Positions 15,601 to 37,797 of a stretch of DNA of 64,000 bases are shown here, in pieces. The notes below the pieces were generated by a model. That model worked only from the letters and a program-made list of their open reading frames with translations, searched no databases and was not told the DNA's origin. The DNA lies in IMG/VR virus record IMGVR_UViG_3300037484_000491, positions 1 through 64,000 of that record; one strand, 5' to 3'. The DNA comes from a virus. The position numbers were made by a program, and so were the translations under genes. Within the stretch, counting starts at the first letter, position 1; the number at the start of each line of letters is the position of its first letter.

Positions 15601-15949
15601 CAGCACCAGCCAAACTATTGTTTATAGCAGATTGAGAAATAGCAGATGTTCCCTTTGTTACAACAGATGCTTTAGTAGCAACATTAGCAGCAACCACAGC
15701 ACTTGTGTATTGCGTAGTTGCTACTGTTGCTACTTTAGCTGCATTTGCTGTTGCAGTAAACCCTGCTACTGTTTTATTTCGCATATCAAGAGCAGCCCCC
15801 GTCACTCCTGCCATAGATGCTTCCATTCTTTCTAAAGTAGAATCTATCTTATTTATCAAAGTAATCATCGTTCTTTCAAAATGAGTCATACTATTGATAG
15901 CTCCTTGAGAATCTACCCCTAACATCACAGTAAGTTGCCCTATAGTCAT
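12611..15949 (-). CDS. tail tape measure protein
   Basis: 1112 aa, Ala/Lys-rich and helical, with internal TM-like segments. The core GVGAQKIAEAYYYVASSGIKGANVLKVTEMAAKGAASGMGEISDLAKLLTSAMNAYA is typical of TP901-type TMP cores. Preceded by the chaperone pair. Confidence 0.85.
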   Translation of the reverse strand: MTIGQLTVMLGVDSQGAINSMTHFERTMITLINKIDSTLERMEASMAGVTGAALDMRNKTVAGFTATANAAKVATVATTQYTSAVVAANVATKASVVTKGTSAISQSAINNSLAGAAGVRGVATAYNVSPMIAKDAINQTIVVARETAKQTALFNKMHNQAIAMDNKRTQICNANRIKEAYAEADAATKRIMTFNKMHSQAITEDIKRTKIAEVNTAKITAVNNAAVGNFVTRLSTISQKLRTFGYLSSAMVTLPMVMIAKSTIKMGMDFEFTLKKMIGLAGVAKDSLAKIGEEANKISKETGVGAQKIAEAYYYVASSGIKGANVLKVTEMAAKGAASGMGEISDLAKLLTSAMNAYADSGLTVTKMMDVLTATIRVGKAEPAEMVTALGTILPIAEKLGLTVEDMSGALATMTLITNSTATSATYFRNVLMKLLNPTPEVVDAMDSMGISMEQIHKLLKSPDGFIKTMELLGITTEKYGVTMDSIFPEMRSLLGALNYIGAGLQRLKDNTNEVKKATGDFQKHLVEMSTTMEMRWNKAIEDGKNSLRDFGTVVAMAVIPILEKLIGWLTSLIKWFDSLNESGKKLTLGILAIIAALGPLSLALSLIGYIAGPLILVYDKLAKSIMSSALVVEGASKSFMRLGFALRALPWVAVGVGLVKLIGWFSDQHNAAVKAAEGNTAYNKTLATVEGTLKRLTDMTVADFAGKGLEGSAKWKQWADDSLINAKQRLAYHLQEAGISQKEYDNAVKVKEIMGTTGGNKQTAGERRKALRVLDFPMRWKNQLNIDVAEVDKFTKLAKVIGDAWTENVIKSFESTGPAVQTVKKEFLILEQLQAAMEKGQQAATSFNAFKASRNAANAKVGVGKGFGMGLPFETPGTGGWQKDVGEPPLEEKLMSERAYLDAKYKMDIAAAKKIGKDTALIIYRYNKEVNRLNLNDIQSYLNSASEAINSISALIEASKQKELSAAGNNAKRREKIEREYMQKQKAWAIAQALINGALAVTNLIANVPMSVLNPATWVGIGVAAASTAAQIAIIAGQKMKEGGIVPSGYPNDTYPALLTSGETVTPPNKLSNIGRQNSISDQLKDVVFHIEGTELVGVFKNHSRKVSSYS

Positions 15950-16805: not shown

Positions 16806-17237
16806 TTATACTGCTGATCCTGATCCTGAATTAACAACTACCTGTCCACTGATCTGGATCGTAACATCCGCTGTGATCTTGTCATCAGCCGGAATAGTTA
16901 AGGGTAATTCAGTTACCAAACCTTCAAACTCTAATGAAGTGTTTTCATCATCCGGTAAATAAATTTCGTAATTCTGCAAATTATCACTCTCAAAATCTGC
17001 CTTCATATCGTCATAAGTATCACGAGTGAAGTTCATTGCAAGAGTAATAGTCCCGGCATTGCGAAACCCTGTTATGAATTCACGATAACCACCTGTACTA
17101 TCAAGAGAAGTCACATCAATAGTGTCCCTTGACATCCCTGGCCCTGTTATCGAATTAATTTCGGCAATGTCAACCCAATCTGAGCCGTTCCATCTCCGAA
17201 ATTTTGTCCCTACACCTGCTACGGCATTGCTTGCCAT
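16806..17237 (-). CDS. major tail (tube) protein
   Basis: 143 aa. GTKFRRWNGSDWVDIAEINSITGPGMSRDTIDVTSLDSTGGYREFITGFRNAGTITLAMNF is typical of the TP901/phi13-type tail tube family. Strong SD (AAGGAGG). Confidence 0.7.
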   Translation of the reverse strand: MASNAVAGVGTKFRRWNGSDWVDIAEINSITGPGMSRDTIDVTSLDSTGGYREFITGFRNAGTITLAMNFTRDTYDDMKADFESDNLQNYEIYLPDDENTSLEFEGLVTELPLTIPADDKITADVTIQISGQVVVNSGSGSAV

Positions 17238-18238: not shown

Positions 18239-18643
18239 TTAAAATCCTCCAAATGATAAACTCGGTGTTAAATATGCTTTTCTTAAAAACTCTGTTCCCT
18301 GTAAATTAGGTGTTTTCTGAAACCTTTTTATAAAGTACGTTCCGGGAATTGTTTTTGGATCATTTACCCCACCCCCACTACTTTCTGTTGCATAATTATC
18401 ATATAAACTTTCTAAAGTCCCTAAATACAACATTCCTTCTTCATCCACATCTTGTGTAAGAAATACAACTGCTCTTGAAGTAATTGCATTTCCTTTTGAA
18501 TCAGTCGTCAACTGGGTCATTTCCTCCCACCTGCAATCCAACTCAATGGAATCATCAAAAGTGAACCCTCCTTCTCCATCGTTTGCCGGGGAGGGCCAGT
18601 AAACACATTTTTGATTACATTTACTTGCTATGAATGTTTCCAT
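18239..18643 (-). CDS. head closure / head-tail adaptor protein
   Basis: Gene order (connector, closure, gp10-like, terminator, tube); 134 aa. Confidence 0.4.
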   Translation of the reverse strand: METFIASKCNQKCVYWPSPANDGEGGFTFDDSIELDCRWEEMTQLTTDSKGNAITSRAVVFLTQDVDEEGMLYLGTLESLYDNYATESSGGGVNDPKTIPGTYFIKRFQKTPNLQGTEFLRKAYLTPSLSFGGF

Positions 18644-19020
18644 TAGTCGTCAAATTCTTCTACTGCATGTATTGTAGCTGATTGTTTGCCTAATTTACCC
18701 ATCAATCCATTAATATCTAATATCATAACCATTTGCCCATAAGGAGTAGAAGCTAATCCTTCTCCTTTGGTAGAATTATACTTTACAGAAGCATCTCCAA
18801 GTTTTTCTTCAACCGCTGTTCTGTATATAGTAGAAGCAATCATGTGAGCCGTGAACCACTTTTCAATTTCCTCTAACAGAGTATCGTCAACAGAAACATC
18901 AGCAAAAACTTCATCTATCATTGTCCCCGCTGCTGCAAGAAAAGGTGCTATCATAACATCTGTTAAAGTTGTTATACTCACATTCATTATTAATCTTACA
19001 TCACTTGCCGTTACTGCCAT
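18643..19020 (-). CDS. gp6-like head-tail connector protein
   Basis: 125 aa; position and an N-terminal VTASDVRLIMNVSITTLTDVMIAPFLAAA pattern typical of DNA-packaging/connector proteins. Confidence 0.45.
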   Translation of the reverse strand: MAVTASDVRLIMNVSITTLTDVMIAPFLAAAGTMIDEVFADVSVDDTLLEEIEKWFTAHMIASTIYRTAVEEKLGDASVKYNSTKGEGLASTPYGQMVMILDINGLMGKLGKQSATIHAVEEFDD

Positions 19021-19023: not shown

Positions 19024-19686
19024 TTACCCCTTTCTTTTATTTTGCTTTGAGTTCCACATTAACGGAGTTATAATATCTATGATATCATCACTCCAATCTA
19101 ATCCTAACCATTCTATCGTTTTTTCCATTTGTTTATAATCCCCTGTTACCATTCTTTCAGGCCACACCTGCCTGCAATTTACACCAGCATTCATCATTTC
19201 CACAAACAACTTTTCATGCAAATGAATCCATTGCAACCAATCATCTTGTGTTGAATATGCAACCATCCATCCTGTTTTCATACATGAGTCAATAATATCC
19301 CCTGTTCTTCTTCTTACAATTACCCATTTTGCATTTGGGAAAGCATAATGCCACATAGGCCATGTTTGACAAAGTCTCGAATCTTTAAACATCCATATTC
19401 TTTCTTTTTCACATTTCTCATCTGACAAAATATACATAACTTTTTGTCTCCAATTAGTCGGAATAATCAATTTCATCGTATCTGGTAATGGGTTTTGTCC
19501 TTTTTTATCAAACCCAAGCAAATTATAATAAGAATCCAGTAATTTTCCAATTTCTAAATTTTCATACATTTCAGAAGTCCTCCCGGAAAATGCCCCACAA
19601 TGATTCACAATCCTTGCAATAATAGAACTTCCTGATCTCTCAATGCCTGTAATAAAAATTGGATTATCTGATTTACTCTGTATCAT
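19024..19686 (-). CDS. PAPS-dependent sulfotransferase-family protein
   Basis: ITGIERSGSSII (5'-PSB-like loop) near the N-terminus and VRRRTGDIIDS (R-x7-S, 3'-PB-like) mid-protein. Confidence 0.6.
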   Translation of the reverse strand: MIQSKSDNPIFITGIERSGSSIIARIVNHCGAFSGRTSEMYENLEIGKLLDSYYNLLGFDKKGQNPLPDTMKLIIPTNWRQKVMYILSDEKCEKERIWMFKDSRLCQTWPMWHYAFPNAKWVIVRRRTGDIIDSCMKTGWMVAYSTQDDWLQWIHLHEKLFVEMMNAGVNCRQVWPERMVTGDYKQMEKTIEWLGLDWSDDIIDIITPLMWNSKQNKRKG

Positions 19687-21002
19687 GTCAATTTATATTT
19701 ATCTATTACTTTTTTTCTATTTATTGTCCGGACCTTTCTATTTGTTTTCTTAATCAACTGATTCGGATGTCTTCTGTAAAAAGCCAATGTAGAATTACAG
19801 TACCCTATCTTCATCCCCATTTGCAAACATCTGATATTAAATTCATATTCTTCAAATGATCTCACCTGCTCCGTTTCATTAAACAAACCAACTTTTTGAA
19901 ATACTTCCCTGCGATACATTGTAGTGGCACTGTGAATAGTATTTTTCACTAATAATTGTTGTAATGTGGGAAATTTAATTGTTGGTTTCCACACAATTTC
20001 ACCTCCTGTTTTTTGACTGTGCTGAATTGCATTTCCATGAATAAAATCAACTCCCTGCTCTTCCAACGCTTTTACAGAATCTTCAATGCAATTTGGTGTG
20101 AGCATATCATCCTCATGAAGATATTTAATATAATCTCCTTCTGCCTGATTTAAAACCTTATTAAAGTTTTGTGGCCAATTCCCCTCCCCCTGACTTAAAA
20201 TCAATTGCACACTATCAGGAACGCTTGCAACAGCATTTTTTAAATACCCCCTATCTATATTATAAGGGATGATAATTGTGACTTTCTTTTTAGCAGTCTT
20301 AACTTCTGATTTGCTAAAACAACTTTGATTTACATAACTTTTTACCCATTGTAAACTGATAGAAGCCTCGGCTGCCTGAAATATTCTTGGCTTTCCATGA
20401 AAACAAACCAAATCAGCATCTTCCGGTAAAAGGCTCAATACAAGTTTTGTTTTAGGTTTAAAATCATATATTGTAGTTGTCAATTGCTGCCAGAATAAAT
20501 CAGGTTGCACACATTTTCGTAAAAAAACATCCATCCGGAAACCCTGAACCTGATTTCCTTTGTTCCACTTTTCCCATATTATTTTTATTTTTTCTGAATT
20601 TGCAGGAAACCAAACCAACCCTGTTGCTAATTGCCCTTTTTGCCAAAAGTCTTCAAGTACAATAAACTTATCAGGTTCTTTTACTAAATTAAATATCTTT
20701 TCTAAAGAATTAATTACAGCAGTATCGAGATCAATATAAAGTAATGGACGATATTGTTCCATTTCAGGACTATAAAGTTGCATACGTGACCATGTGCCTT
20801 TGTAAGTATTAGTAAGTGGAATAATTTGAATGTTCCCCAAATCATACGATTCACTTGCTTTATCCCAAAGACAAATAATTCTTGGGGTGTTTGCAAATCT
20901 CCATTTTCCGTTGATGTGTCTTGAAATAAGTTCCACATCCCGAAATGCAAAATCCCCTCCTGAGCGCAAAACTAAAACTACTGTGTGTTGTAAATTCTCC
21001 AT
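19683..21002 (-). CDS. two-domain glycosyltransferase (N-terminal DxD domain + C-terminal GT2 domain)
   Basis: C-terminal KVTIIIPYNIDRGYLKNAVASV...AEGDYIKYLHEDDML is GT2-like. The N-terminal half contains LLYIDLDTAV. I chose ATG 21002 (MENLQ...); the track start 21068 would overlap the upstream gene by 65 nt. Confidence 0.65.
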   Translation of the reverse strand: MENLQHTVVLVLRSGGDFAFRDVELISRHINGKWRFANTPRIICLWDKASESYDLGNIQIIPLTNTYKGTWSRMQLYSPEMEQYRPLLYIDLDTAVINSLEKIFNLVKEPDKFIVLEDFWQKGQLATGLVWFPANSEKIKIIWEKWNKGNQVQGFRMDVFLRKCVQPDLFWQQLTTTIYDFKPKTKLVLSLLPEDADLVCFHGKPRIFQAAEASISLQWVKSYVNQSCFSKSEVKTAKKKVTIIIPYNIDRGYLKNAVASVPDSVQLILSQGEGNWPQNFNKVLNQAEGDYIKYLHEDDMLTPNCIEDSVKALEEQGVDFIHGNAIQHSQKTGGEIVWKPTIKFPTLQQLLVKNTIHSATTMYRREVFQKVGLFNETEQVRSFEEYEFNIRCLQMGMKIGYCNSTLAFYRRHPNQLIKKTNRKVRTINRKKVIDKYKLT

Positions 21003-21003
21003 A

Positions 21004-22107
21004 TTAAATTTTTGAATGATAATCTTCAACAGGAATTCGCCAATCACTAAGAAGATAATGCCTGTCAAAATAAGCCTCTACATCATGCACCGTTTTGAAA
21101 TCCTGACCATATAATTTTATATTTGAAAGTCCGTTATCAATTTGAAATGCTTCAATAGTATATGTTTTCCCGGAACGATACAATCCTTTATCTTTTTCAA
21201 AAAACCAAAAATCTATGTAATCCATTTTATATTGTAAAGCTTTTAAATGATGTTTACCATACCATTCACGAATAAATAACAATCCATGAATAGCAAAATA
21301 TCCATCATCTATAAGTTGTGTGATCTTATCATTATATTTTTCCAACAAAGCTAAATCAATATCAGTATCATGCAGAATAAAAGAACCATTCCTGTGGGCC
21401 CCTAAAAGTGTACCAAACACAATAAAAAATGGAATATTGTAGTCTTCAAATATTTGTTTAACAGTAAAAAGTAAATATATAGATTGCATCAAATGAAGTT
21501 TGCCATAAGTACGTTTTTCATCTCTTTGTGAGCCTCTTGTGTTTATTTCCCCTTTCTTCTTTGCCACAACTCTTATTAATACCGGATTTTCCCTATTATA
21601 TATGGACAACCCATCACTTTCTGTTTCAAATAATATCTCAAAATTCAGATAAAATAATTTTTCTAATAATTTTTCTTTATCTATTCTTCTACGATAATGC
21701 TTGTCAATTTTAGAAGATAACACACCTTTATCACTTCTAACTTCAATAAATAACAAACCCCCTGTATTTAATACATGATTGGAATTAATCAATATGTAAT
21801 CTTCAATATGTTCAGGTACACTATGCAAAACAAACCTGCAATATACATTATCAAAAAATTGATCATAATTAAATTTTGAAATTTTGTCAAATAAATTTAA
21901 AGTTTCATGGTCAAAAGAAGAAACTTTCATCTTGTTACTTTTAAAATATTTTGAATCCCTGCCATTCCCACAACAAATATCCAACACACTACTTTTTAGT
22001 TTCATATAAGGCAAACAAAATTCAGAAAATGAAGAAGGTGCCAATGTGACTTTTTGCCAATCATACTTTTTCCAAAAATTAAAACTATATGTGTTGTTTG
22101 CTTCCAT
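21004..22107 (-). CDS. fusion protein: SAM-dependent methyltransferase domain + LicD-family phosphotransferase domain
   Basis: VLDICCGNGRDSKYF (SAM motif I) in the N-terminal half. FFIVFGTLLGAHRNGSFILHDTDIDLAL (LicD hallmark GTLLGA-R...D-DID) in the C-terminal half. Confidence 0.65.
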   Translation of the reverse strand: MEANNTYSFNFWKKYDWQKVTLAPSSFSEFCLPYMKLKSSVLDICCGNGRDSKYFKSNKMKVSSFDHETLNLFDKISKFNYDQFFDNVYCRFVLHSVPEHIEDYILINSNHVLNTGGLLFIEVRSDKGVLSSKIDKHYRRRIDKEKLLEKLFYLNFEILFETESDGLSIYNRENPVLIRVVAKKKGEINTRGSQRDEKRTYGKLHLMQSIYLLFTVKQIFEDYNIPFFIVFGTLLGAHRNGSFILHDTDIDLALLEKYNDKITQLIDDGYFAIHGLLFIREWYGKHHLKALQYKMDYIDFWFFEKDKGLYRSGKTYTIEAFQIDNGLSNIKLYGQDFKTVHDVEAYFDRHYLLSDWRIPVEDYHSKI

Positions 22108-23325
22108 CTAAAATATTGTTAACAAATCTTTATTTATATCATCCAAATTAGAAAGTAATGAAGTAACTGGCCCTCCTTTTTGCAAATGATGCTGATGCTT
22201 AAATCCTGAAAAATCCCATTTATAAGAAAATCCGGGGTATGTAAAATTATTAGCCACTTCTTCTGTATCATGCACTATAAAATAATCAACATTGTCCTTA
22301 ATTACTTCAATAAATTTTTGTCTGGATATATTGCTCGATCCATCAATAAATGCAATAGCATATTTTTTCTTAAATAATTTATGATCCCATTTCCCTAATT
22401 CATCATACGACATACAAATTAATTCATGTAAATCAGTTTTATATTTTTTAAATTTATCCATCCATTTTTTATCTGTCTCTACCGATAAAAGTTCCCTGCC
22501 CTGCATCCCACAAATAATGTGCATAATCTGACTGCTATTATCCCCCATCCCATATTCTAATACAGCACCTTCTTTAATTGTATTTAATGTATGAATTAAA
22601 ACAGGCTGATGTGATGCCCAAGGATGCAATATCTTATTTTGCTTAAACAATGAATACGAAACTTTACAATCATTATCCACCAAATCCATATACCTGTCAT
22701 TTATCACAACCGATGGTGATTCACCTGTAATAATTTTAACATACTCATCAAATGAGATCCATTGCAATAATATTTTTCTATTCCTGATATATTGATTCCA
22801 AGAAATATCACGTTTAAAATTTACTTGTGCATTAGGTAAAATTTTCCTTGGTGTCAATATGCCACACCCCCAACCACCCCCTACGACAAAACAACTCCAA
22901 TCAGACAACTCATTCTTTAACTGAATAAAAGCTTTATACATTGTTCCTAACCAGCAACCACCAACTCTTAAAAATTCTTTATAAGATACTGTAAGATGCT
23001 CATGTCTTGGATCACAAGAATGTATAATAATAAAACCCCCATCATTAAGATGTGTCATTGCATTTATGGCATCCTTATATGCCTGTTCTTTAGTCTGCAT
23101 CCCATCAATAAAAATAACATCATACTTTTTATCCGGGTATTTTTTAAAAAAAGCATCGCTTGTCATAACATGAGTACAATCTCCTTTTGGAAATGGATCA
23201 ACCGATTCTTTAATTTTCGCATTTATCCTGTTAAAGTTATTTTCAGGATATTCCAAACCAATTTCCAAATAAGATTGAAAATTATATTTATTAAAAAGTA
23301 TATTTATGATAGCTGTTCTATTCAT
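22108..23325 (-). CDS. tandem class I methyltransferase-like protein (two Methyltransf_24-like halves)
   Basis: YLEIG...KYDVIFIDGMQTKEQAYKDAINAMTHLNDGGFIIIH, and a second half VLEYGMG...KYAIAFIDGSS...YFIVHDTE. Confidence 0.5.
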   Translation of the reverse strand: MNRTAIINILFNKYNFQSYLEIGLEYPENNFNRINAKIKESVDPFPKGDCTHVMTSDAFFKKYPDKKYDVIFIDGMQTKEQAYKDAINAMTHLNDGGFIIIHSCDPRHEHLTVSYKEFLRVGGCWLGTMYKAFIQLKNELSDWSCFVVGGGWGCGILTPRKILPNAQVNFKRDISWNQYIRNRKILLQWISFDEYVKIITGESPSVVINDRYMDLVDNDCKVSYSLFKQNKILHPWASHQPVLIHTLNTIKEGAVLEYGMGDNSSQIMHIICGMQGRELLSVETDKKWMDKFKKYKTDLHELICMSYDELGKWDHKLFKKKYAIAFIDGSSNISRQKFIEVIKDNVDYFIVHDTEEVANNFTYPGFSYKWDFSGFKHQHHLQKGGPVTSLLSNLDDINKDLLTIF

Positions 23326-24107
23326 GTTTGTGGGTATTTAACTATTATATAATCTTCTTTTTTTAAATTTCCTCTTTCATTAAAATCATAATAATATGTT
23401 TTATCATCTTTAATAGGAAGCTGTTCCCATTTATGCTTCATACAACCATAATACAAATTCATAATCGCCTGTTCATTTGCTATACTATTCACGTACCTGT
23501 AAGCCAATCTCCACAATATATCAAATGTGCTATCTTCAATTATAATTGTATCATACAACATAACCGTTGCCTGAAAATGGTCAATGTCCAAATTATACAA
23601 AGTGTTTAATTCAGCATATAATTCAGGATAAACAACTTTATCAAATTGTGTGTATAATTTATCTTCCGGTTTATATTCAGGGTAAGCATTGGAATGTGTT
23701 AAAAGTTTATTAGTGCAATCCAAATTAATCAATTTATCCAAAGGCTTAAATATCTGGGCACCCACATCAATATAAAAGCATTTCTTATAATTTTCTTTGA
23801 ACCATGAATGAAACATATAAAACCCATGATAATGAATCATTTTTCTTTTCATCGGAAAATAAGGATAAGCAAACTTTTCCATTCTTTTAGGATGATTCAG
23901 TATTGGGGAGGTATCATATTGAAAAAAGTTTTTGCATATCACATTATCATCTTTGCGTAAAAGATTATGGTAGTTGTGTAAATCATTAGCCAAAATACAA
24001 ACTATATCTCCTTTATAAGTCCCAACATTTCTAATTTGAGAAATAGTCAGTGATGCCTTTTTTACAAACTTCCTGTCAAACATTAATATAATACAAAGAT
24101 CCTTCAT
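23322..24107 (-). CDS. putative nucleotide-diphospho-sugar transferase-fold protein
   Basis: Only context and an N-terminal LCIILMFDRKF...GDIVCI beta-alpha pattern; weak. Confidence 0.3.
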   Translation of the reverse strand: MKDLCIILMFDRKFVKKASLTISQIRNVGTYKGDIVCILANDLHNYHNLLRKDDNVICKNFFQYDTSPILNHPKRMEKFAYPYFPMKRKMIHYHGFYMFHSWFKENYKKCFYIDVGAQIFKPLDKLINLDCTNKLLTHSNAYPEYKPEDKLYTQFDKVVYPELYAELNTLYNLDIDHFQATVMLYDTIIIEDSTFDILWRLAYRYVNSIANEQAIMNLYYGCMKHKWEQLPIKDDKTYYYDFNERGNLKKEDYIIVKYPQT

Positions 24108-24991
24108 GTGCTTAATATCTTATTTTTCCAATATGAAAAATTCAATTTTTCCATGTTCCATTTAATTAAACGAATTCTTTTCCATTCTGCTTCAAGAAAA
24201 TCAGGATTTACTTCTGACCAATCATCTACAAAACAAATGGGTAAATCCGTGTAAAACCGATTATTCAAATTTCGTTTTTCAATTGGTATAGTCCCCATAT
24301 ACAAACATTCCCATGTTCTTATCGTGTCTATCCCATTGCCTTCAGGACAAAATACAAATTTGTGATTATACATTTGATGAATATATCTTTCAAACTGATC
24401 CCCATTCCTGCCCTCATGAGAAGTCACCCATTTTTCCTTTCCAAACATAGCATACAATGGCTGTCGTTCTTTTGCATTAGTTTTTATATTATGATTCATA
24501 TAAACTAAATTTCTAACCCCTCTGTGTTGCTTGCACTGGTGCTTCATTATTTCCAACTTAGGAACCTTTTTAAACCACCTGTCATTTTCAACACCTATTG
24601 GAATTGATTCAATCCGTGAATTTATAGTATTTACATTTTTACTATGCCAACATATTATATTTGCCGGTATTTCAAATTCAAAAATTTCCTTTACTGCCCC
24701 TTTCCCATCAGGTTGCCTTATTCCATAATCTTCAATACTACAATCACAACTATGAGTAATCAATATGTATTTTTTGCTAAAATATTGCATAATATCAAAT
24801 AATGATTTAACATATCTCATGTGAGTATAAATAAGATCCCCATCTTTCATCTTTGATAAATCAAGCGTATTAGGAAGATCATCATAATCATCTCTTGGAC
24901 GTGGCACAGGTCTTGGAGAATATGTGAAATGTACCATACCCCTAAACTTATCCCCTTGAACCCAATCAATATTTTCTAACTTGTTTTCCAC
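24104..24991 (-). CDS. exostosin (GT47)-like glycosyltransferase
   Basis: C-terminal YNHKFVFCPEGNGIDTIRTWECLYMGTIPI matches the exostosin-family motif (F-C-x-P-G...R-x-x-E-x-x-x-x-G-x-IP). Confidence 0.5.
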   Translation of the reverse strand: MENKLENIDWVQGDKFRGMVHFTYSPRPVPRPRDDYDDLPNTLDLSKMKDGDLIYTHMRYVKSLFDIMQYFSKKYILITHSCDCSIEDYGIRQPDGKGAVKEIFEFEIPANIICWHSKNVNTINSRIESIPIGVENDRWFKKVPKLEIMKHQCKQHRGVRNLVYMNHNIKTNAKERQPLYAMFGKEKWVTSHEGRNGDQFERYIHQMYNHKFVFCPEGNGIDTIRTWECLYMGTIPIEKRNLNNRFYTDLPICFVDDWSEVNPDFLEAEWKRIRLIKWNMEKLNFSYWKNKILST

Positions 24992-26414
24992 TTTTTATAA
25001 TTTCCTGATGTGCCTTTATCCATAATAACTCCCAATAATGAATTGCATAAGAATATTCAGTTATATATTTTCTGCTATTGTCTTTTTCAAATCCAGGTTT
25101 GTTGGGATAAGCATAAAAATATTCAGTAGGCATAATTAAAACCCCATCCACCGGTTCAATCACTACCTCAAAAAACTTATCGGTAAATAAATAATTACCT
25201 GTGGTTCTGAATATATCCTGTGAACCTGTTACTTTTTTATTGACAATTGAATTAATCATATTTTTAATTACAGGATGATTAGGCGTGCAACCAATTAAAG
25301 CATTATAAAATTCTACTTTAGAAGGATACCCCACACCCATTAAAAAATTAAGATGCGTAAAAGCATTAAACGATTTAAAACACTCAAAATCAGTGTCTAT
25401 ATATAATCCACCAAATTTATCAAGTATATAATAACGCAATAAATCTGATTTACTTCCATAATTATTCATTGAATCATATAAATTCCTGTCAGGCAACAAA
25501 TCATCAACATCTTTATCCATCCACAATCTATACTCCCAATCAGGATTAAATTTCTTCCATGAATTTACTAATTTTACATGACACTCTAAAGGATCACTGC
25601 CAAGCCATATCTGGTGTATTTTCTTTGGTAAAACATCATAATCCCTTTTACCCCCAATATCAACAAAATTCTTTTGGTACAATGCTTTCAAAAGATCCCA
25701 TTTAATTTTGTTGTCATCAAAAACTTTCTGATTAAAACAATACGACTTTTTTACAGATACTTCAAAATCAACAGGTTTTCTTTTAATATATAAAGCATCA
25801 CCCCACGTATTTCTATCTTTTGCAGACTTACTATCTTTAGTAAGAACCCTCTTAAACCCATAAACATTTAAAAACTCATCTAACTCACTTACCAGACAAC
25901 AACCTTTATAAACATCTTCAAAATTAACTTCCGTGTATATTACATCAATTGATTTTAACGTTTCTGCACTGCCTTTAAACACTTCTAATTCAAACCCCTG
26001 AACATCAATATTTATCATATTAAACAACTCCCTATCAAAAACAACATTGTCAAGTTTAGTAATTGTCACATTTTCAAATCCTGTAAACTTAATATGAGGA
26101 TGCAGTTCTAAATGAGTTCCTGGTTCAAGAAAAGAACAACTTTGTCCTTTTACCTTTTCAATATACATTCTCCGTTCTCCTGTTTCATTCCCCAATGCCA
26201 AATTATATAATTTGATATCATTTCTTCTTAAAACACGAAAACACAACTTTTTATAGTTTGCTTTAACAGGTTCAAAAAATAACATATTCTTCACACCTTG
26301 CTCTGCATACATATTATATTCTTGTCCATAGTGAGCCCCAATATGAATCACTCCACGAATGTTTAATTTATAATCAGATATTATTTGAGATAATTTAATT
26401 AACATTTTATCCAT
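24966..26414 (-). CDS. fusion protein: FkbM-family methyltransferase + GT32-type (DXD sugar-binding) glycosyltransferase
   Basis: N-terminal VIHIGAHYGQE...NIDVQGFELEVFKGSAETLKSIDVIYTEVNF (FkbM-like). C-terminal IHQIWLG...SDLLRYYILDKFGGLYIDTDFEC (Gly_transf_sug DXD region). Confidence 0.65.
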   Translation of the reverse strand: MDKMLIKLSQIISDYKLNIRGVIHIGAHYGQEYNMYAEQGVKNMLFFEPVKANYKKLCFRVLRRNDIKLYNLALGNETGERRMYIEKVKGQSCSFLEPGTHLELHPHIKFTGFENVTITKLDNVVFDRELFNMINIDVQGFELEVFKGSAETLKSIDVIYTEVNFEDVYKGCCLVSELDEFLNVYGFKRVLTKDSKSAKDRNTWGDALYIKRKPVDFEVSVKKSYCFNQKVFDDNKIKWDLLKALYQKNFVDIGGKRDYDVLPKKIHQIWLGSDPLECHVKLVNSWKKFNPDWEYRLWMDKDVDDLLPDRNLYDSMNNYGSKSDLLRYYILDKFGGLYIDTDFECFKSFNAFTHLNFLMGVGYPSKVEFYNALIGCTPNHPVIKNMINSIVNKKVTGSQDIFRTTGNYLFTDKFFEVVIEPVDGVLIMPTEYFYAYPNKPGFEKDNSRKYITEYSYAIHYWELLWIKAHQEIIKSGKQVRKY

Positions 26415-27157
26415 TCTTTAGGATCATAAACTTCAAATTCTTTATTAACAATTCTTTGCCTTATCTTACACTCTAATTGTTGTTTTGGAACTATTACAAT
26501 TTTATCAGAATTAGAATTAAGATGTGCCGCCCACCATGAAAAAGAACTACGTGAGCAAATCTGATGCTGACACAATCTCATCAATTCAAAATCCAAGTAT
26601 TCCTGAAAATGAATAAATGAAACCCCTTTAAAATTCTCTCTACACCATCCCATATCATCACTAAATATATAATAATCACCTTTTACCAACTCCATTGCAT
26701 CAAGATAGTACTTTAAAGACAAAACAGGAAATCCTTCAAGAGTTAAATAATCTCCTCTGCGCACATGTACCGCTATCGCATTAGGATTTAATATAATTTC
26801 TTCTCTGACATTTAAAAATTCTCCTATATAAAACTCTTTTCTAACCTCACACTCCTTCCTAAGCGCAGGTAAAATTGATTTAGAATATGCCGGGTATTGC
26901 CAATACCCACTAAAATTAAAACCATCCTTCTTTAATAATTCTGAATCAAACCCTCTTTCATGTATGGTTTTTGCTAACCTGTGTTCTTCCAATTTTAAAT
27001 CTATTGCAAACTTATCCAAAACATAACAACGAGATGTGACTTTCCTGTACCATGAATTATTAAACCGCACATCAATGCCATATTTCATTTGCGCTCTGCC
27101 AAAAGCATATTGAAATAACTGATTCCCTAACCCTCCACAAAGTTTAATTACATTCAT
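26399..27157 (-). CDS. GT11 alpha-1,2-fucosyltransferase-family protein
   Basis: CGGLGNQLFQYAFG at the N-terminus and AVHVRRGDYL are both GT11 hallmarks. Confidence 0.75.
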   Translation of the reverse strand: MNVIKLCGGLGNQLFQYAFGRAQMKYGIDVRFNNSWYRKVTSRCYVLDKFAIDLKLEEHRLAKTIHERGFDSELLKKDGFNFSGYWQYPAYSKSILPALRKECEVRKEFYIGEFLNVREEIILNPNAIAVHVRRGDYLTLEGFPVLSLKYYLDAMELVKGDYYIFSDDMGWCRENFKGVSFIHFQEYLDFELMRLCQHQICSRSSFSWWAAHLNSNSDKIVIVPKQQLECKIRQRIVNKEFEVYDPKEWIKC

Positions 27158-27161
27158 TTTT

Positions 27162-27872
27162 TTAACTATTATCTAAAATCAATTCTTTCAAATTATACTT
27201 AGGAAATTCTTTAATCATACTATCAGGACTGCAATTCAAAATTTCAATACCTCTGTGTTTTGCATCTTTAGCAATTTCAGAAAACCCTCTTAAATGCCTG
27301 TCAAATGGTAAATGATGTGCTTTCTTTGGATTTGGATTAGTGTAATTCCTGTTATATACATTATGCCAATGCTGATGTTTTGAATCACTCAATTTCATAT
27401 CAAACCCAAGTAATATAATTCTCTTTGCACCTATATTAGCAGCAACACTAATTGCTGCGGCCCCACTATTACTATTCCAACTCACCATTTTTGGATTACT
27501 ACTAATTCCCCTTGGATGTTTAGTATCTCTTGGAAGATATTTAATCCAATCATATTTATTTGCTGTTGGGTGACATGAAACTTTTATTCCGGGAAATTGT
27601 GCCAAAGCATCCCTGTGCTTTAAAAAAAAACCAACATCTCCAAAAAAAACAATATCAATCCAATTTCCTATTAAATAAGCAGCATTAATGCCAATAACAT
27701 GCTTATCATGCAAAAAAGACATATATGATGAATACGTATTGGGGGAAGAAGAACCTTCAAAAACACTATTAACAATATTCTTTGGAATATTAAATTGCTC
27801 TGTTACTGACGGCCCCCCTCCTAATATCCAAACATCCCCCCCATCCCATATACGAGGCACTTGCCAAATCAT
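27162..27872 (-). CDS. MptE/Maf (DUF115)-like putative glycosyltransferase
   Basis: VWILGGGPSV...VIGINAAY...IVFFGDVGF...GAAAISVAANIGAKRIILLGFDM resembles the DUF115 layout; from memory, unverified. Confidence 0.35.
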   Translation of the reverse strand: MIWQVPRIWDGGDVWILGGGPSVTEQFNIPKNIVNSVFEGSSSPNTYSSYMSFLHDKHVIGINAAYLIGNWIDIVFFGDVGFFLKHRDALAQFPGIKVSCHPTANKYDWIKYLPRDTKHPRGISSNPKMVSWNSNSGAAAISVAANIGAKRIILLGFDMKLSDSKHQHWHNVYNRNYTNPNPKKAHHLPFDRHLRGFSEIAKDAKHRGIEILNCSPDSMIKEFPKYNLKELILDNS

Positions 27873-28231
27873 TTTTGCAAATCAATAATAAGTTTTTCAG
27901 CCACTTCCTTTTTTAAAGACTTTTCATTAAGAATTTTCCCCTGCCCATCAACAATGTCAAACAAGTATAAACTCTTCCCATGAGGCTGTAAAACATAAAC
28001 AGGCTTTACTATATTTGATGGAAGAACCACCTTCTCTGTTTCATCTTTCCATACTTCAACATCCCCATCCAAAGAAATTACCAAATTCTTAAAAGATTTA
28101 GAAATTTCACTGGGAAATGCTTCAAAAACCTGACCCGGTTTAATAATTCTTCCACCAAGTCGTAAAGATCCCCCACCTACTTTTTTCCATCTCATTTTAC
28201 CTTCTGTTGTATCTGTCCTTGCACGTTCCAT
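27869..28231 (-). CDS. hypothetical protein (120 aa) between the capsid gene and the transferase island
   Basis: ORF track; ATGA overlap with the next gene. Confidence 0.45.
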   Translation of the reverse strand: MERARTDTTEGKMRWKKVGGGSLRLGGRIIKPGQVFEAFPSEISKSFKNLVISLDGDVEVWKDETEKVVLPSNIVKPVYVLQPHGKSLYLFDIVDGQGKILNEKSLKKEVAEKLIIDLQK

Positions 28232-28279: not shown

Positions 28280-29392
28280 TTAAGCCAATTTCACAATACC
28301 GCACTTGCCGTTCTGATCAGAACGAATTTGCGGAATTTGTATTGCCATTACTTTGTACTTTGTAATCATCCCACCTTCAACACTCCACTGAATGTTAGTA
28401 AGGCCAAACCCGTTTACTAAACGAACTGTTTCCTTCTTCATTTCAACTAACAAAACCGTGTCATCCGGGAGTTTGTCAATAACTTTGATACCACCGATAC
28501 CTGCAATATCCAAAAGACGTTTTCTAATTGTCGTCCCAGGAGTAGTTGTATCATAATCATCATCAAGAACAACTTCATAATCAGTAGGAATATAAAGCTG
28601 CCAAGGACCATAATGATAAGCCCCTATACTCGATTTCTTCATATTAAGAACATCATTAAGAATACCTGCTGCCGTTTTAGCAGAAGCATCCCAGGCAGTG
28701 CCAAGAGTCACACCATTAATATCAGGAAAATTTATATAACTGTAAATTTTATTCCTGCTACGATCATCTTTAGTCCCATAAGCATAATCAGTATCAGTAA
28801 ACAACATTTCTTCCTGTTTTTCCAAAATTCTACGTGCTGCTCTTTCTGCAAGAGTAGTGTCAAGTGGATTTCCAAGTTTCCTGCTTGCTTCCAAATGCCT
28901 TGCATTGATTTCATAATCAACATGCAATATTGGAATAGGCAAATAATTGGTCTGATACACTACTGTATCATTTACTCCACGAGTTACTGCATCCATTGTT
29001 AATTCAACAGACAGAGCATCACTTACATCATGCCATTCAAGAACAGTTGTGCCCATTGCATTACCAAGATTGTAAGTCAGACCTTTATCAAGTAAATCCT
29101 GTACTCCACCAAGTCTGCCACGGGCAACATCCATTAACGCTTCATCCAACTGCTTCCACTCATCCCTCCGAAGGGTATTTGTATTATTCAGCGGATTTGC
29201 ATTAATGCAGATTTCACGGTAACTTGATGGTTTAGTAGGAGAACCTCCCATATATGTATTTACATATATTTTACCATCGTCACCAAGATAAGGTTTCATT
29301 TGTCCAACATTCAAGTTCCCGGAACTAAACCGGCTTGCTACGGGACCTTCAACCCCACCATTTGCCAAAAAATCAACTTTTACATCAAGCAT
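28280..29392 (-). CDS. major capsid protein (encapsulin-like / DUF2184-type HK97 fold)
   Basis: 370 aa. NTLRRDEWKQLDEALMDVARGRL...LPIPILHVDYEINARHLEASR follows the encapsulin/DUF2184 pattern. Consensus SD AGGAGG at 29401-29406. Downstream of the scaffold/protease gene. Confidence 0.7.
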   Translation of the reverse strand: MLDVKVDFLANGGVEGPVASRFSSGNLNVGQMKPYLGDDGKIYVNTYMGGSPTKPSSYREICINANPLNNTNTLRRDEWKQLDEALMDVARGRLGGVQDLLDKGLTYNLGNAMGTTVLEWHDVSDALSVELTMDAVTRGVNDTVVYQTNYLPIPILHVDYEINARHLEASRKLGNPLDTTLAERAARRILEKQEEMLFTDTDYAYGTKDDRSRNKIYSYINFPDINGVTLGTAWDASAKTAAGILNDVLNMKKSSIGAYHYGPWQLYIPTDYEVVLDDDYDTTTPGTTIRKRLLDIAGIGGIKVIDKLPDDTVLLVEMKKETVRLVNGFGLTNIQWSVEGGMITKYKVMAIQIPQIRSDQNGKCGIVKLA

Positions 29393-29414: not shown

Positions 29415-29903
29415 TTATGTGATTCTTACTCTAAGAAACTGTTTTGTAGGAGCTTCACTGGAACCGGCAGCAGAAAGGCTGGAAAGTTCCAATTTCTCTA
29501 ATGCCTGAGCAACAATCTGTAAAGGATACACTGTATCAACTGCCTGAGAAGAAACCTCTACATCTGTTATTTTCTGTAAGTACCCTGCTCCATTTGATTC
29601 AAGGAAATCACCAATAGCAATATCCTGTTCGTCTTCAAGTTGAGCATAAACCTCATCTCCTTTTTGCGGAATCCAAACCCGAACTTTATCCCCAGCTGCA
29701 TAAGCGTCTGTAAGTCCCTTGCCCTGAAGACTATCTTCAATTGCAAACATCGGAATTGCATTCCCTCCTTCAGTAGCATGTTTTCTTAAAGTTGAATACC
29801 CCGGACGAGGTTCAACTAACATACCAGGGGACAGAGCTTCGTAAGCTTCATATTCCACGAAGTTATTCCCATAATTTTTCAGTATTACTGTGTTGTACGC
29901 CAT
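29415..29903 (-). CDS. head decoration/auxiliary capsid protein candidate
   Basis: 162 aa between the scaffold/protease and capsid genes; strong SD (AGGAGG). Confidence 0.4.
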   Translation of the reverse strand: MAYNTVILKNYGNNFVEYEAYEALSPGMLVEPRPGYSTLRKHATEGGNAIPMFAIEDSLQGKGLTDAYAAGDKVRVWIPQKGDEVYAQLEDEQDIAIGDFLESNGAGYLQKITDVEVSSQAVDTVYPLQIVAQALEKLELSSLSAAGSSEAPTKQFLRVRIT

Positions 29904-29920: not shown

Positions 29921-31285
29921 TTATTTGACGGTTTCCATTTCAACACCAACGGGATACATCACACCACCGCTGCCACTTGCATTAGCCTGAACAAATGCAG
30001 CAGCATTAAGTGAATAATTCCCATTATCTTCTTTTACAACGGATTTATATATCCCTTCAAGGGTATCGTCATCCATCTTACTCAACTTCTCATCAGTCCA
30101 TACTTTATCAGTATTAGCCTGAATCCCTTTAATCAGTTTCTCCCTCTGCTCCTTCAACTGTTTCTTGCCAAAAGCAAGAGCTGCCTGATCTTCCGCAGAA
30201 AGTTTGTTAATCTCCACTGTCTTTTCAACAACTTTCTCAACTTCTACCACCTTTGGGGCAATAGCTTTATCAAGGGCTGCTTCTGACAATGTTTCCAACC
30301 ACACCCTATCTGTTTCGTCAAAACCAGACTCCTTGTTTGCAAGAAGCGTATTGATTTTTTCAAGGCATTTTGGGCATTCGTTTTTTGCCATTTTACTTTC
30401 CTCCATTTTATTATTATTACTAAATTTACCTCTTGTCAAACTACTGTTGACAACATTAGCAGAATTAAGATCGTTGATTTTCCCGCTTTCAATTTCTTCA
30501 TCCTGTTTATCTTTGATTTCATTATCTTTCTTTTCATTTGCCCCTAACCCACAACCATCTTTACAACTACAAGCCCCAATCTGGTCATGCAATATTGCCA
30601 AATGGTCAGGTCTGTGATTCTTTGCTACCCCAATATATTTCTCCCCTTCGTATTCCCCTTCTTCCATTTCATTTTCTGTAAACATCCCAAGAGAAACTTC
30701 AACTTCTTTTGTTTCATTTATATCTTCCAAAGTTTCAGTTGACACATTGTTAAGTTTATCCTCATCCAACCAAACCTCTGCTTTAAGTTTCTTCCCTTCC
30801 ACAGAAGTATTATAAACCCTACCCACCGTTCTCTTATCAATAACATCAGGAGAATTTGCAGAAATAGCATTTCCATCTTCATCCTCTGGGTGATAAATAA
30901 CAACCGGAATCCCATTCCACGATTCAGGGAATTTACCAAGTTCAGTTATTGTATGCAATAATGGCCCCTGACTTCCATTATGCACCCCCTCTACCATCAT
31001 TACGACTGGAATAACCAAATGTGCTTTCTCCTGATGTACTGTGAGTTTTATTTCATAATCTAATACCTGCTTATTCTTATAAACAGAGTATTTTCCTTTG
31101 CTTTCATTAGTATTCATTACTGCACCATTAGCTTGCTTTATAGCAGAAGCAGCACACTCTTTTTCAGAACCTCCTTTTGCCATACATCTTTTAAGTACAG
31201 AATTGCAAATTCTTGCCCACTGTTTTGCTTGTTTTTCCGTAAGGCCGGCTTTGTGCTTTTTTGCATCTTCCCAAGTCCAAGGCAT
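29921..31285 (-). CDS. DUF2213-like prohead protease/scaffold protein
   Basis: GIPVVIYHPEDEDGNAISANSPDVIDKRTVGRVYNTSVEGKKLKAEVWLDEDKL resembles DUF2213. The C-terminal third is charged coiled coil (scaffold-like). Strong SD. Confidence 0.55.
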   Translation of the reverse strand: MPWTWEDAKKHKAGLTEKQAKQWARICNSVLKRCMAKGGSEKECAASAIKQANGAVMNTNESKGKYSVYKNKQVLDYEIKLTVHQEKAHLVIPVVMMVEGVHNGSQGPLLHTITELGKFPESWNGIPVVIYHPEDEDGNAISANSPDVIDKRTVGRVYNTSVEGKKLKAEVWLDEDKLNNVSTETLEDINETKEVEVSLGMFTENEMEEGEYEGEKYIGVAKNHRPDHLAILHDQIGACSCKDGCGLGANEKKDNEIKDKQDEEIESGKINDLNSANVVNSSLTRGKFSNNNKMEESKMAKNECPKCLEKINTLLANKESGFDETDRVWLETLSEAALDKAIAPKVVEVEKVVEKTVEINKLSAEDQAALAFGKKQLKEQREKLIKGIQANTDKVWTDEKLSKMDDDTLEGIYKSVVKEDNGNYSLNAAAFVQANASGSGGVMYPVGVEMETVK

Positions 31286-31550: not shown

Positions 31551-32507
31551 TTACATATATTTTTGAATATCTGCAATCCATGGAAGCCAGCAACATCTGC
31601 AATTCGGGTGAACCGGGATTATTCCACTTGCTTCATCCAATGTAAATACTTTACCTTGCAAATGTTCACAAATCGAACATACTCGATCATCCCCAGCAGT
31701 TTGAAACTCTACTAAAGCAGAAACCCCTTCAATTCCCCAATTACGATATTCTTGTAAAGTACTTTCTGCAAAACTTCTTATTGTTTCAGTTCTGGCCAAC
31801 ATCTCTGCCCTTCTCATTGCAGGAATAAATCTTCCCAAAGTATCAGTAATTCCTAATTCACCCATTCCTGTACCATTTATTGCAGCCACAAGTTTTCGTG
31901 CAATCAAAGCAGGAGCTTCACCATTTAAAAACCCTTGTGTGAGAATCCTGCTTATTTGTGTACTCATTGCATCAGTGATGCCCTTTAAATCTGTAAATAC
32001 TTTTCCTTGCAACAATCCCAACCTTTCAACATGATAAATATTTTTCAACACCATGTCAATTCCTCCCATTTCTTCTATGGTTGGTATTTTCATCCCTGCT
32101 TTTATCAATTCCTGTCTTGCCCTTGTTACCCCCATCTTGTAAGCCTCGTACACATACCTATTTGTCCAAGGGTCTGTAAACCTTGCTGTACTTAAAATTC
32201 CCCTGTCAACTTGTGTCTGTACCCAAATAAGGAATAATGCTATTTTCTCTGAACTATTCCTATACTTTAATTCTTCTTCCGAAAGAGGTTGCATTTGGTT
32301 TGCTTGCAATTTATCTTTCTTCAACCCAAAACAATCATTGTTGTAAACTGACCTTTTAACCATCAAAGCAAGTTCAGTAAACCTTTTGTTTACATCTTTG
32401 AAAAAAGCATTTCTCAACCTCATAGTTAAGGTTGGGTCAACTTTCTTTACTTGCTGATATGTTGTTAATTCTTTCATATTATTTCGTGTCGTCTGACTGC
32501 AACTCAT
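31551..32507 (-). CDS. phage head morphogenesis protein (Mu F / SPP1 gp7 family)
   Basis: RAEMLARTETIRSFAEST...AGDDRVCSICEHLQGKVFTLDEASGIIPVHPNCRCCWLP is the classical Mu F C-terminal motif. Confidence 0.8.
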   Translation of the reverse strand: MSCSQTTRNNMKELTTYQQVKKVDPTLTMRLRNAFFKDVNKRFTELALMVKRSVYNNDCFGLKKDKLQANQMQPLSEEELKYRNSSEKIALFLIWVQTQVDRGILSTARFTDPWTNRYVYEAYKMGVTRARQELIKAGMKIPTIEEMGGIDMVLKNIYHVERLGLLQGKVFTDLKGITDAMSTQISRILTQGFLNGEAPALIARKLVAAINGTGMGELGITDTLGRFIPAMRRAEMLARTETIRSFAESTLQEYRNWGIEGVSALVEFQTAGDDRVCSICEHLQGKVFTLDEASGIIPVHPNCRCCWLPWIADIQKYM

Positions 32508-32512
32508 TTAGA

Positions 32513-33031: not shown

Positions 33032-33292
33032 TTACTTATTTTTATCTATTGACACAAAATCAACACACTTACTCAATGATACTTTACCTTCAGATATAAC
33101 TATTTTATCATTTGATTCAAGAATCTTTTTTATATCAATTTTTGACACATCATTTATTAGATTTTTGTCTTTGTAATCTTTATATAATATTACGTTGACA
33201 TCATCGTCTGTATATATGGTACATTTCTCCGCCAATATAATTTCCTTAGTAGATTCAATCAATGCAACCCCCAAATTGAGTATCTTTTTCAT
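33032..33292 (-). CDS. hypothetical protein (86 aa)
   Basis: ORF track; abuts neighbours without a gap. Confidence 0.4.
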   Translation of the reverse strand: MKKILNLGVALIESTKEIILAEKCTIYTDDDVNVILYKDYKDKNLINDVSKIDIKKILESNDKIVISEGKVSLSKCVDFVSIDKNK

Positions 33293-34695: not shown

Positions 34696-34701
34696 CTTGT
34701 T

Positions 34702-37754: not shown

Positions 37755-37797
37755 AATCGTAATTTTAAAGTGTTTGATTAACAAAATATTTATCTTT

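Follow-up and report, generated by a model that had tools for sequence, protein, structure and literature searches.

Why should a bacterial virus place a run of glycan-building and glycan-decorating enzymes between the gene for its major capsid protein and the gene for its head-tail connector? The question is raised by a 64-kb window of DNA (positions 1 to 64,000 of IMG/VR record IMGVR_UViG_3300037484_000491), in which nine minus-strand open reading frames (ORFs) occupy positions 19024-27872. This island is bounded upstream by the major capsid gene and a 120-amino-acid ORF (27869-28231, minus strand), here called o120, and downstream by a head-tail adaptor-like gene. In an initial annotation the island had been proposed to build an elaborate glycan on virion proteins, and the placement described there agrees with the coordinates and strand in the ORF list, with the translations, and with the identities that PHROGs assigns to the flanks. 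Comparison with related phages shows that the island is one state of an accessory, rapidly changing cassette site whose position is conserved across a large phage family, and that Ser-rich segments on two virion proteins come and go with one of the island enzymes. The reading favored here, at a probability of about 0.6, is that the island glycosylates the phage's own virion proteins by cytoplasmic O-glycosylation.

The major capsid gene (28280-29392, minus strand; phrog_771 and phrog_264) and the adaptor-like gene (18643-19020, minus strand; phrog_302 and phrog_37884) serve as the upstream and downstream anchors of the insertion site. IMG/VR contains 203 relatives of the capsid protein, and the best 80 of these 203 matches were retrieved; a second scan and a scan of a genome collection enlarged the sample to 166 loci. 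All 166 show the capsid and adaptor genes in synteny, with an interval of variable length between them. The site is empty in loci L091, L115, and L152, where no more than 36-101 nucleotides (nt) separate the capsid stop from the adaptor start. The interval measures ~1.0-1.2 kb in L058, L089, and L012, and the largest intervals reach 9.7 kb in complete loci and exceed 10 kb where a contig breaks off within the island. Every occupied interval contains ORFs on the same strand. Because the site is empty in three relatives, the island is dispensable for virion assembly. Nor is the arrangement a chimera of a phage contig with a host polysaccharide locus, a possibility raised in the initial annotation, as the same site is occupied in ~146 related phage contigs.

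The contents of the site turn over rapidly. The 84 complete islands that differ from one another show 60 gene orders and draw on 95 protein families, of which 48 are singletons, and phages whose capsid proteins are 85-95% identical have only about half of their island families in common. L109 and L114, with capsids 94.9% identical, carry two and seven island genes, respectively. Domains are shuffled as well, with FkbM, glycosyltransferase (GT) family 32, and GT47-like domains occurring alone or variously fused in relatives. Some cassettes have no counterpart in the window, including a GDP-fucose-synthase-like epimerase/reductase (3e-64, 10 loci), a cupin, GT10-like, GT9-like, and GT1-like genes, and further GT2 genes. 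The combination of enzymes first noted as undescribed is accordingly one among at least 60 architectures and does not represent a fixed system. The GC content of the island lies under that of both flanks in 54 of 62 loci, by a mean of 3.9 points (0.31 against 0.37-0.38 in the window). Bacterial O-antigen and capsule loci are organized in the same manner: the site is fixed, the ends are conserved around a mosaic middle, and GC content is low. The phage site repeats this fixed-site, low-GC mosaic pattern, but the export and polymerization genes of the bacterial loci (Wzx/Wzy or ABC type) are not present in the phage island. Such rapid turnover would imply diversifying selection on the virion surface, with shielding or surface tuning as a possible role of the glycans.

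The best argument for an action of the island on virion proteins, suggestive rather than conclusive, is the covariation of two protein segments with the gene at 27162-27872 (minus strand). Its product, a 236-amino-acid DUF115/MptE-like and GT42-sialyltransferase-like protein referred to here as the core enzyme, is present in 146 of the 166 loci and together with o120 makes up the 5' end of nearly every island. Of the 20 loci without it, seven have a fully covered site, and the other 13 mostly end too early to be scored. When C termini are compared across loci, nearly all members have a Ser/Gly/Thr end on the tail-tube protein and a Ser-rich, often acidic loop on the head decoration protein; in the loci without the core enzyme both segments are missing, wherever the protein's sequence was retrievable. 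In the window, the predicted acceptors are the loop LELSSLSAAGSSEAPT (29445-29492, minus strand), which lies ahead of the last strand of the decoration protein (29415-29903, minus strand; phrog_766), and the C-terminal Ser/Gly tail NSGSGSAV (16809-16832, minus strand) of the major tail (tube) protein (16806-17237, minus strand; phrog_158).

The separation between the two groups of loci is clear for the tail tube. The tail past the conserved strand is 10-16 amino acids long in 65 loci with the core enzyme as compared with 5-9 in those without it, with no overlap, and an SG-type motif is found within the last 11 residues in 54 of 57 unique sequences with the enzyme and in none of six without. 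The tail is missing in all 6-7 loci that lack the core enzyme. For the decoration loop, a strict pattern matched 82 of 113 sequences and the misses visibly hold Ser runs, so that Ser counts were used instead; the median is 4 (range 1-7, n = 140) with the enzyme and the count 0-1 (n = 5) without it. What the core-negative sites do contain differs from locus to locus: a truncated o120 and a sulfotransferase in L058 and L166, o120 and a sulfotransferase in L089, o120 with a GT-A/ATP-grasp fusion and a sulfotransferase in L084, and nothing in the three empty sites. Fitch parsimony on a neighbor-joining capsid tree gives three independent losses of the core enzyme from an enzyme-positive root, and the nearest neighbor of L058, at 80% capsid identity, has the core enzyme and both segments. 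Because L012, in which the core enzyme is the sole enzyme of the island, keeps both Ser-rich segments, whereas L084, with another transferase and a sulfotransferase, has neither, the segments track the core enzyme specifically.

These comparisons support the general proposal of virion self-glycosylation from host pools, through the conserved site and the covarying segments, with a chemistry that is still predicted and with general acceptors that differ from most of those first suggested. The decoration protein, one of the original candidates, is retained on account of its covarying loop as a predicted site. The others are not. No segment of the major capsid protein covaries with the core enzyme, and its C terminus is conserved and not Ser-rich in either group. 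None of the related loci encodes a homologue of the Thr-rich protein at 37798-38526, and only two encode one of the leucine-rich repeat (LRR) protein at 33292-34695; as both are missing from most phages that carry the core enzyme, neither is a general acceptor. A separate observation concerns L089, one of the loci without the core enzyme, in which the tail-tube protein (13943-14335 and downstream) carries an Ig-like C-terminal extension in place of the Ser/Gly tail. This extension may be an alternative form of tail-surface decoration.

What reaction might the core enzyme catalyze? It matches phrog_4603, named "alpha-2,3-sialyltransferase," at 1.6e-33, and the family to which it belongs is large, with 4908 representatives at 50% identity (E ≤ 1e-3), frequently fused at the C terminus to GT2, methyltransferase, TupA-type ATP-grasp, hexapeptide acyltransferase, or GT9 domains. 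The longest such fusions reach ~1200 amino acids (L043, where a 1108-amino-acid ORF comes after o120, and P0121, P0163, P0182, and P0189). The DUF115/Maf-like label given to the protein at the outset has weak but consistent similarity behind it, with low-scoring Pfam MptE-like matches for 43 of 44 close and 33 of 74 distant relatives (best E values 4.9e-6 and 8.7e-7). Searches of PDB sequences with phmmer and profiles returned only a 27-residue MptE motif. An AlphaFold2 model of the core enzyme (predicted local distance difference test (pLDDT) 88.6) has 25 Foldseek matches among the predicted viral structures of BFVD at E ≤ 1e-3, among which those named DUF115/MptE-like range from 8e-7 to 9e-4 and the best, at 6e-12, is unnamed. 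Among the non-significant Foldseek matches in the PDB are SteA and GT29 sialyltransferases (TM 0.35-0.40); GT42 structures were not retrieved.

Comparison with the GT42 sialyltransferase Cst-II of Campylobacter jejuni provides a more specific prediction. Aligned with hhalign, a 74-sequence profile of the core family and Cst-II (its sequence checked against PDB 2WQQ/1RO7) are collinear over 186 columns, and the invariant residues G18/G20/P21/S22/N63/S136/G137/D158/H193 fall on Cst-II G8/G10/P11/S12/N31/S132/G133/D154/H188. These positions are the GNGPS loop, N31, S132-G133, D154, and the catalytic base His188 of Cst-II, so that GxGPS, N, SG, GxD, and His would, on this alignment, occur in the same order in both, in keeping with the name given to the phage family by PHROGs. 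The similarity is marginal (E 0.0012), and Cst-II acts on lipooligosaccharide sugars and not on protein. A weak NCBIfam match to the 3-deoxy-d-manno-octulosonic acid (Kdo) transferase WaaZ points in the same direction. That the core enzyme is a minimal transferase for cytidine monophosphate (CMP)-activated ulosonic acids is a moderately supported prediction from sequence. CMP-Kdo is universal in Gram-negative bacteria. As the islands contain no genes for CMP-sugar synthesis, a host pool such as CMP-Kdo would be the simplest donor. Direct action on protein fits with L012, which has the core enzyme alone and both of the Ser-rich segments.

The proposed pathway runs as follows. The late operon would be transcribed as a unit, the island together with the structural genes, and the soluble enzymes would act in the host cytoplasm on freshly made virion proteins, before or during assembly. 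The first sugar would be joined by the core enzyme to Ser residues in two places, the decoration loop and the tail-tube tail, and its simplest source would be a CMP-activated ulosonic acid drawn from the host, such as Kdo or a nonulosonic acid. The variable cassettes would then extend and decorate the chain, in the window by a GT11 enzyme of the fucose type, GT32, a GT-A/GT2 protein, and GT47-like and GT8-like enzymes, by three to four O-methyltransferase domains of the FkbM, Methyltransf_24, and Methyltransf_23 types, and by a LicD-type enzyme that may transfer a phospho-alcohol from a CDP donor. The sulfotransferase would either sulfate the glycan or act separately on protein. A finished virion would bear its strain-specific glycan on both head and tail, in hundreds of copies.

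The assignments on which this scheme draws vary in strength. Judged against the curated cut-offs of each family, in bits, Pfam profiles place domains in six of the nine ORFs (all on the minus strand), which bears out most of the families read from motifs in the initial annotation. The GT11 glycosyltransferase (alpha-1,2-fucosyltransferase type) at 26399-27157 matches Glyco_transf_11 (PF01531; 2.3e-22, 80 versus 23.9 bits) and phrog_2644 (7e-34), and its translation contains GGLGNQLFQYAFG and HVRRGDY, an HxRRGD motif. At 24966-26414, an N-terminal FkbM-type methyltransferase (Methyltransf_21, 4e-18, 66.6 versus 22.7 bits; TIGR01444, 4.5e-17) is fused to a C-terminal GT32-type glycosyltransferase (Gly_transf_sug, 3.7e-15, 56.8 versus 23 bits) with the DXD motif in YIDTDFE; in relatives the two halves are separate genes or otherwise fused. 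A class I S-adenosyl methionine (SAM) methyltransferase with a related second, C-terminal half lies at 22108-23325 (Methyltransf_24, 7.7e-11, 43.2 bits, above cut-off). It had been recognized as a tandem enzyme, and the second half (residues 206-405) is found as a stand-alone gene in six loci. The ORF at 21004-22107 combines an N-terminal SAM methyltransferase (Methyltransf_23, 2.5e-7, 31 bits, above cut-off) with a C-terminal LicD-family phosphotransferase; LicD (PF04991) is matched at 4.3e-5 (24.1 versus 22.6 bits) in its N-terminal motif region only, and an NCBIfam match to the cholinephosphotransferase Mf1 motif (2.4e-10) is far under the full-length cut-off.

The remaining glycosyltransferases are less certain. 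A two-domain protein at 19683-21068 (probable start ATG 21002) has a C-terminal GT2 domain (Glycos_transf_2, 2.4e-9, 37.8 bits, above cut-off) and a predicted N-terminal GT-A domain, and the halves are separate genes in several relatives. The GT2 part of the original call holds, while the second DxD domain falls below the Pfam cut-off, though it matches phrog_1962, "glycosyltransferase," at 4.3e-24 (residues 29-243). The exostosin-like enzyme at 24104-24991 can be kept only as a weak assignment, a putative GT-B-like, exostosin/RXYLT1-like glycosyltransferase below the Pfam cut-offs for Exostosin_GT47 (PF03016; 1e-3, 18.8 versus 33.4 bits) and RXYLT1_C (3e-4, 20.6 versus 27). Of the first 80 loci, 27 contain a homologue, in some cases fused to a GT32 domain. 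Equally weak is the putative GT-A, GT8-like glycosyltransferase at 23322-24107 (Glyco_transf_8, 0.004, below cut-off), an ORF left undescribed previously. It has no homologue in the first 80 related loci and is a singleton.

The enzymes were described as soluble, and a scan with a hydrophobic 19-residue window found no polytopic membrane profile among the island proteins of the window; in relatives, 28 of 333 island proteins have one hydrophobic window each, mostly within Rossmann strands. There is no Pfam or NCBIfam match in the window's island to an initiating phosphoglycosyl transferase, a flippase or ABC exporter, or a polymerase. The reported absence of nucleotide-sugar synthesis genes likewise holds for the window's island, but does not extend to the relatives, given their GDP-fucose-synthase-like epimerase and cupin.

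At the 3' end, the island is closed by a 3'-phosphoadenosine 5'-phosphosulfate (PAPS)-type sulfotransferase (19024-19686, minus strand) that matches the full Sulfotransfer_3 profile (6e-9, 36.9 versus 27 bits) and contains GIERSGSS, resembling a 5'-phosphosulfate-binding motif (5'-PSB), and VRRRTGDIIDS, resembling a 3'-phosphate-binding motif (3'-PB). Of 44 complete islands, 35 contain this gene. Among solved structures, that of human protein-tyrosine sulfotransferase 2 (TPST2; E 0.002) comes nearest, and the enzyme may act on a protein or a host molecule instead of a phage glycan. The family call itself stands, but with this nearest structure, and with the enzyme persisting where no glycosyltransferase is found, a sulfated glycan is not its sole reading. 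No consistent pattern was seen by eye between Tyr residues near the decoration loop and presence of the sulfotransferase. The o120 protein, at the other end, consists of two small domains joined by a variable linker (AlphaFold2 pLDDT 77). It is present at every occupied site and missing from the empty sites, and it has no match in Pfam, PHROGs, NCBIfam, or Foldseek searches. The o120 protein (P0271) bears the Joint Genome Institute (JGI) label "exopolysaccharide biosynthesis protein," and no search supports that or another function for it.

Several points weigh against O-glycosylation of virion proteins by the island. Both phage and host are uncultured. The covariation rests on three inferred loss events and on a neighbor-joining tree of one protein. 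As the sulfotransferase (L058, 11366-12085; L089, 11535-12242) and o120 persist in relatives that have neither glycosyltransferase nor Ser-rich segments, part of the island has another target. With respect to the core enzyme, the Pfam score for MptE-like/DUF115 (PF01973) is 20.1 bits as compared with a gathering score of 34.6, Foldseek finds no significant match to its model in the PDB (best E 0.03), and the hhalign probability for the Cst-II alignment is low, at 19%. The homologue in Pseudomonas phage PAJU2, ORF010, was labeled "structural protein" by its depositors (GenBank AP009624), which, if the label came from virion proteomics, would make a non-catalytic role possible. Finally, soluble cytoplasmic transferases could act on lipid-linked intermediates of host glycans.

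This last point is the basis of the alternative that survives best, although it is an unlikely one, namely that the island serves the late remodeling of host envelope glycans (lipopolysaccharide (LPS), capsule, or exopolysaccharide) by enzymes that act on lipid-linked intermediates on the cytoplasmic side of the membrane. Possible purposes would be the masking of receptors against superinfection, the prevention of re-adsorption of progeny to debris, or an aid to release. GT11, GT2, GT32, LicD, FkbM, and sulfotransferase families are typical of bacterial polysaccharide loci, the low-GC mosaic resembles that of O-antigen loci, and several island genes are filed by PHROGs under "moron, auxiliary metabolic gene and host takeover"; moreover, a paper on an Azotobacter phage speculates that a sialyltransferase-like gene modifies host exopolysaccharide (PMC12772287). 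Such remodeling leaves unexplained, however, the link between the core enzyme and two virion proteins, whose Ser-rich segments are lost where the enzyme is lost. Known serotype converters use membrane proteins and their own promoters, whereas the island has no membrane component, separate promoter, or terminator, and no integrase was seen in the 64-kb window. Expression from the latest-expressed operon would also leave little time for a change in the cell surface.

More improbable still is a structural role, in which the DUF115-like protein would bind the Ser-rich tails as a factor in assembly or as a minor part of the virion, and the remaining enzymes would be unrelated cargo of a recombination hot spot. 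The PAJU2 label, the low Pfam score of the core family, and the lack of a significant match to a solved structure would all fit, as would the presence of insertion hot spots at the junctions between large terminase (TerL) and portal and between portal and minor head protein. Yet the invariant residues of the family coincide with the nucleotide-sugar motifs and catalytic His of Cst-II, and fusions of the protein with GT2, methyltransferase, ATP-grasp, and acyltransferase domains recur. What comes after the core gene is always carbohydrate enzymes rather than random cargo, and relatives with an empty site assemble without the core protein. Glycosylation of the phage DNA (hypermodified bases) as a shield from restriction is the least credible alternative and is rejected, for while phage glycosyltransferases often target DNA and multi-enzyme pathways for DNA glycans are known (bioRxiv 10.1101/2023.12.21.572611; PMC13326640), the 64-kb window contains no base-hydroxymethylation genes (hydroxymethylase, TET-like, or of a 5-hydroxymethylcytosine (5-hmC) or 5-hydroxymethyluracil (5-hmU) pathway) and only two N6/N4 DNA methylases, the island lies in the structural operon and not in an early or middle region, the GT11, LicD, and sulfotransferase families are without known precedent on DNA, and the covariation with virion proteins would be left unexplained.

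How would virion self-glycosylation by this island compare with systems already described? To our knowledge, mycobacteriophages are the only phages whose particles have been shown to be glycosylated, and evidence for such modification in the broader phage population is reportedly scarce. As described in two papers (PMC12619734, PMC11600133) that cite Freeman et al. 2023 (Cell Host Microbe 31:1216), phage-encoded transferases glycosylate the C termini of capsid and tail-tube subunits in these viruses, and those of cluster O stand in tandem with an O-methyltransferase. By these accounts, the transferases (Che8, Corndog/cluster O, Myrna) are soluble and use host donor pools to attach O-linked glycans to the Ser/Thr-rich C termini of tail-tube and head proteins. 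The island offers a parallel in its soluble transferases and methyltransferases and would be expected to act likewise. Two features of the mycobacteriophage type are found directly: the enzyme genes are linked to virion genes, and the Ser-rich segments are present with the core enzyme only. In contrast to the mycobacteriophages, the host is probably a low-GC Gram-negative bacterium, the core enzyme is DUF115/GT42-like, the repertoire is broader (GT11, GT32, LicD, sulfotransferase, and several methyltransferases), the predicted head acceptor is the decoration protein and not the capsid protein, and the genes occupy a fixed-position hypervariable cassette site with 0 to more than 12 genes. Of these differences, the hypervariable cassette organization sets the island apart the most.

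Two other systems illustrate parts of the same strategy. In the Maf (DUF115) flagellin islands of Campylobacter, Helicobacter, and Aeromonas, a self-assembling surface protein is O-glycosylated at Ser/Thr in the cytoplasm before assembly by a DUF115-fold enzyme that uses a CMP-nonulosonic acid, and accessory genes, including methyltransferases, vary among strains. Maf proteins are, however, multidomain and ~600 amino acids long, as compared with the 236-residue minimal domain of the phage core enzyme, itself under the Pfam cut-off; the phage islands also differ in having no nonulosonic-acid synthesis genes and in their predicted acceptors, which are virion proteins. The chlorovirus PBCV-1 uses its own cytoplasmic multi-enzyme pathway to place fucose-containing, O-methylated glycans on its capsid protein, with a set that includes exostosin-like enzymes and multidomain transferase-methyltransferase fusions. 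Unlike the island, that system belongs to a eukaryotic giant virus, its glycans are N-linked, and its genes are dispersed, with no hypervariable cassette.

Among cultured phages, smaller versions of the island are found at other insertion points. PAJU2 has a mini-island (locus L168; NC_011373, 5674-7617) between head-closure and tail-completion genes that consists of the core homologue ORF010, ORF011, and the methyltransferase ORF012. Caulobacter phage CcrBL9 has another, gp522-527 (locus L170; NC_048047, 6037-10526), after the tail genes, with the core homologue gp527, three genes without an assigned function, a methyltransferase, and a GT9-like gene, and Brevundimonas jumbo phages hold homologous mini-islands as well. 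Those of PAJU2 and CcrBL9 differ from the island in their size (3-6 genes) and insertion points, at 24-31% identity. Literature searches returned no experimental work on these mini-islands.

If the favored reading is correct, virion glycosylation would extend past mycobacterial phages to a large, globally sampled uncultured family. The islands would offer a compact toolbox of soluble protein-glycosylating enzymes. Glycan "serotypes" would be an unrecognized axis of phage diversity, with a bearing on adsorption, aggregation, binding to mucus or particles, grazing, and recognition by immune or defense systems. With acceptor sites and a core enzyme now predicted, the idea is directly testable in Escherichia coli or in PAJU2. 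A stronger version of the proposal can be advanced only tentatively, at somewhat less than even odds. Under this version, the site would be an O-antigen-like "virion serotype locus," where cassettes are exchanged at a high rate between capsid and neck genes, a minimal DUF115/GT42-like protein O-ulosonyltransferase initiates, and related phages display different head and tail glycans that are fucosylated, methylated, phospho-substituted, and possibly sulfated. Virion glycosylation would then be common and subject to diversifying selection, no longer a peculiarity of mycobacteriophages, and the core family, with its 4908 clusters, would represent a new minimal class of protein-directed ulosonic-acid transferases.

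The genomic setting of the island is a siphovirus late operon that reads from right to left, with flanking genes identified by PHROGs. On the minus strand, it includes the small (40458-41018) and large (38951-40477) terminases, the portal (34702-36168), an SPP1-gp7-like minor head protein (31551-32507), and a scaffold/protease-like gene (29921-31285) ahead of the decoration and capsid genes. On the other side of the island, three neck genes come after the adaptor-like gene, and the tail genes include the tape measure (12611-15949), with chaperone and distal tail proteins in the same part. Junctions within the island are gaps of 0-4 nt or overlaps of 4 nt, as had been reported for all of them, with the exception of two longer overlaps among the longest-ORF calls, of 16 nt at 26399/26414 and 26 nt at 24966/24991. 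A scan of the island found no terminator-like hairpin on the coding strand.

The rest of the window is a replication module with an SNF2 helicase, a sigma factor, a primase, a DnaB-like helicase, a clamp, two DNA methylases, a uracil-DNA glycosylase (UDG)-like protein, and a PolA exonuclease; no tRNAs were found. The sigma factor (47455-47901, plus strand; Sigma70_r2, 1.4e-12), encoded in this replication/early module, may drive the late operon, including the island. The two N6/N4 DNA methyltransferases (56998-57954 and 59575-60372, plus strand) flank genes for sliding-clamp-like and UDG-superfamily proteins, an arrangement that suggests anti-restriction by methylation rather than by glycosylation of the DNA.

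As to the wider affinities of the phage, megablast of the island against 50,697 phage records gave no match, and tblastn with the major capsid protein and TerL retrieved only distant relatives, at 31-38% identity, with no close relation to actinophages. Phage-sized contigs of the family (L081-L093 and P0112) are filed in metagenome-assembled genomes with conflicting labels, 6 of 13 being Bacteroidota when Balneolales are counted and the others Patescibacteria/Paceibacterota, Omnitrophota, Spirochaetota, Deltaproteobacteria, and Hyphomicrobiales; the conflict probably reflects mis-binning. Two further variable insertion sites lie on the minus strand of the late operon, at the TerL-portal (36168-38951) and portal-minor-head (32507-34702) junctions, where the intervals range from 3 to 3054 nt and from 54 to 2926 nt, respectively, in relatives. 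In the window, these sites are occupied by four small ORFs, among them that of the Thr-rich protein noted above, a Thr/Gly/Ala-rich repeat protein, and by the LRR protein.

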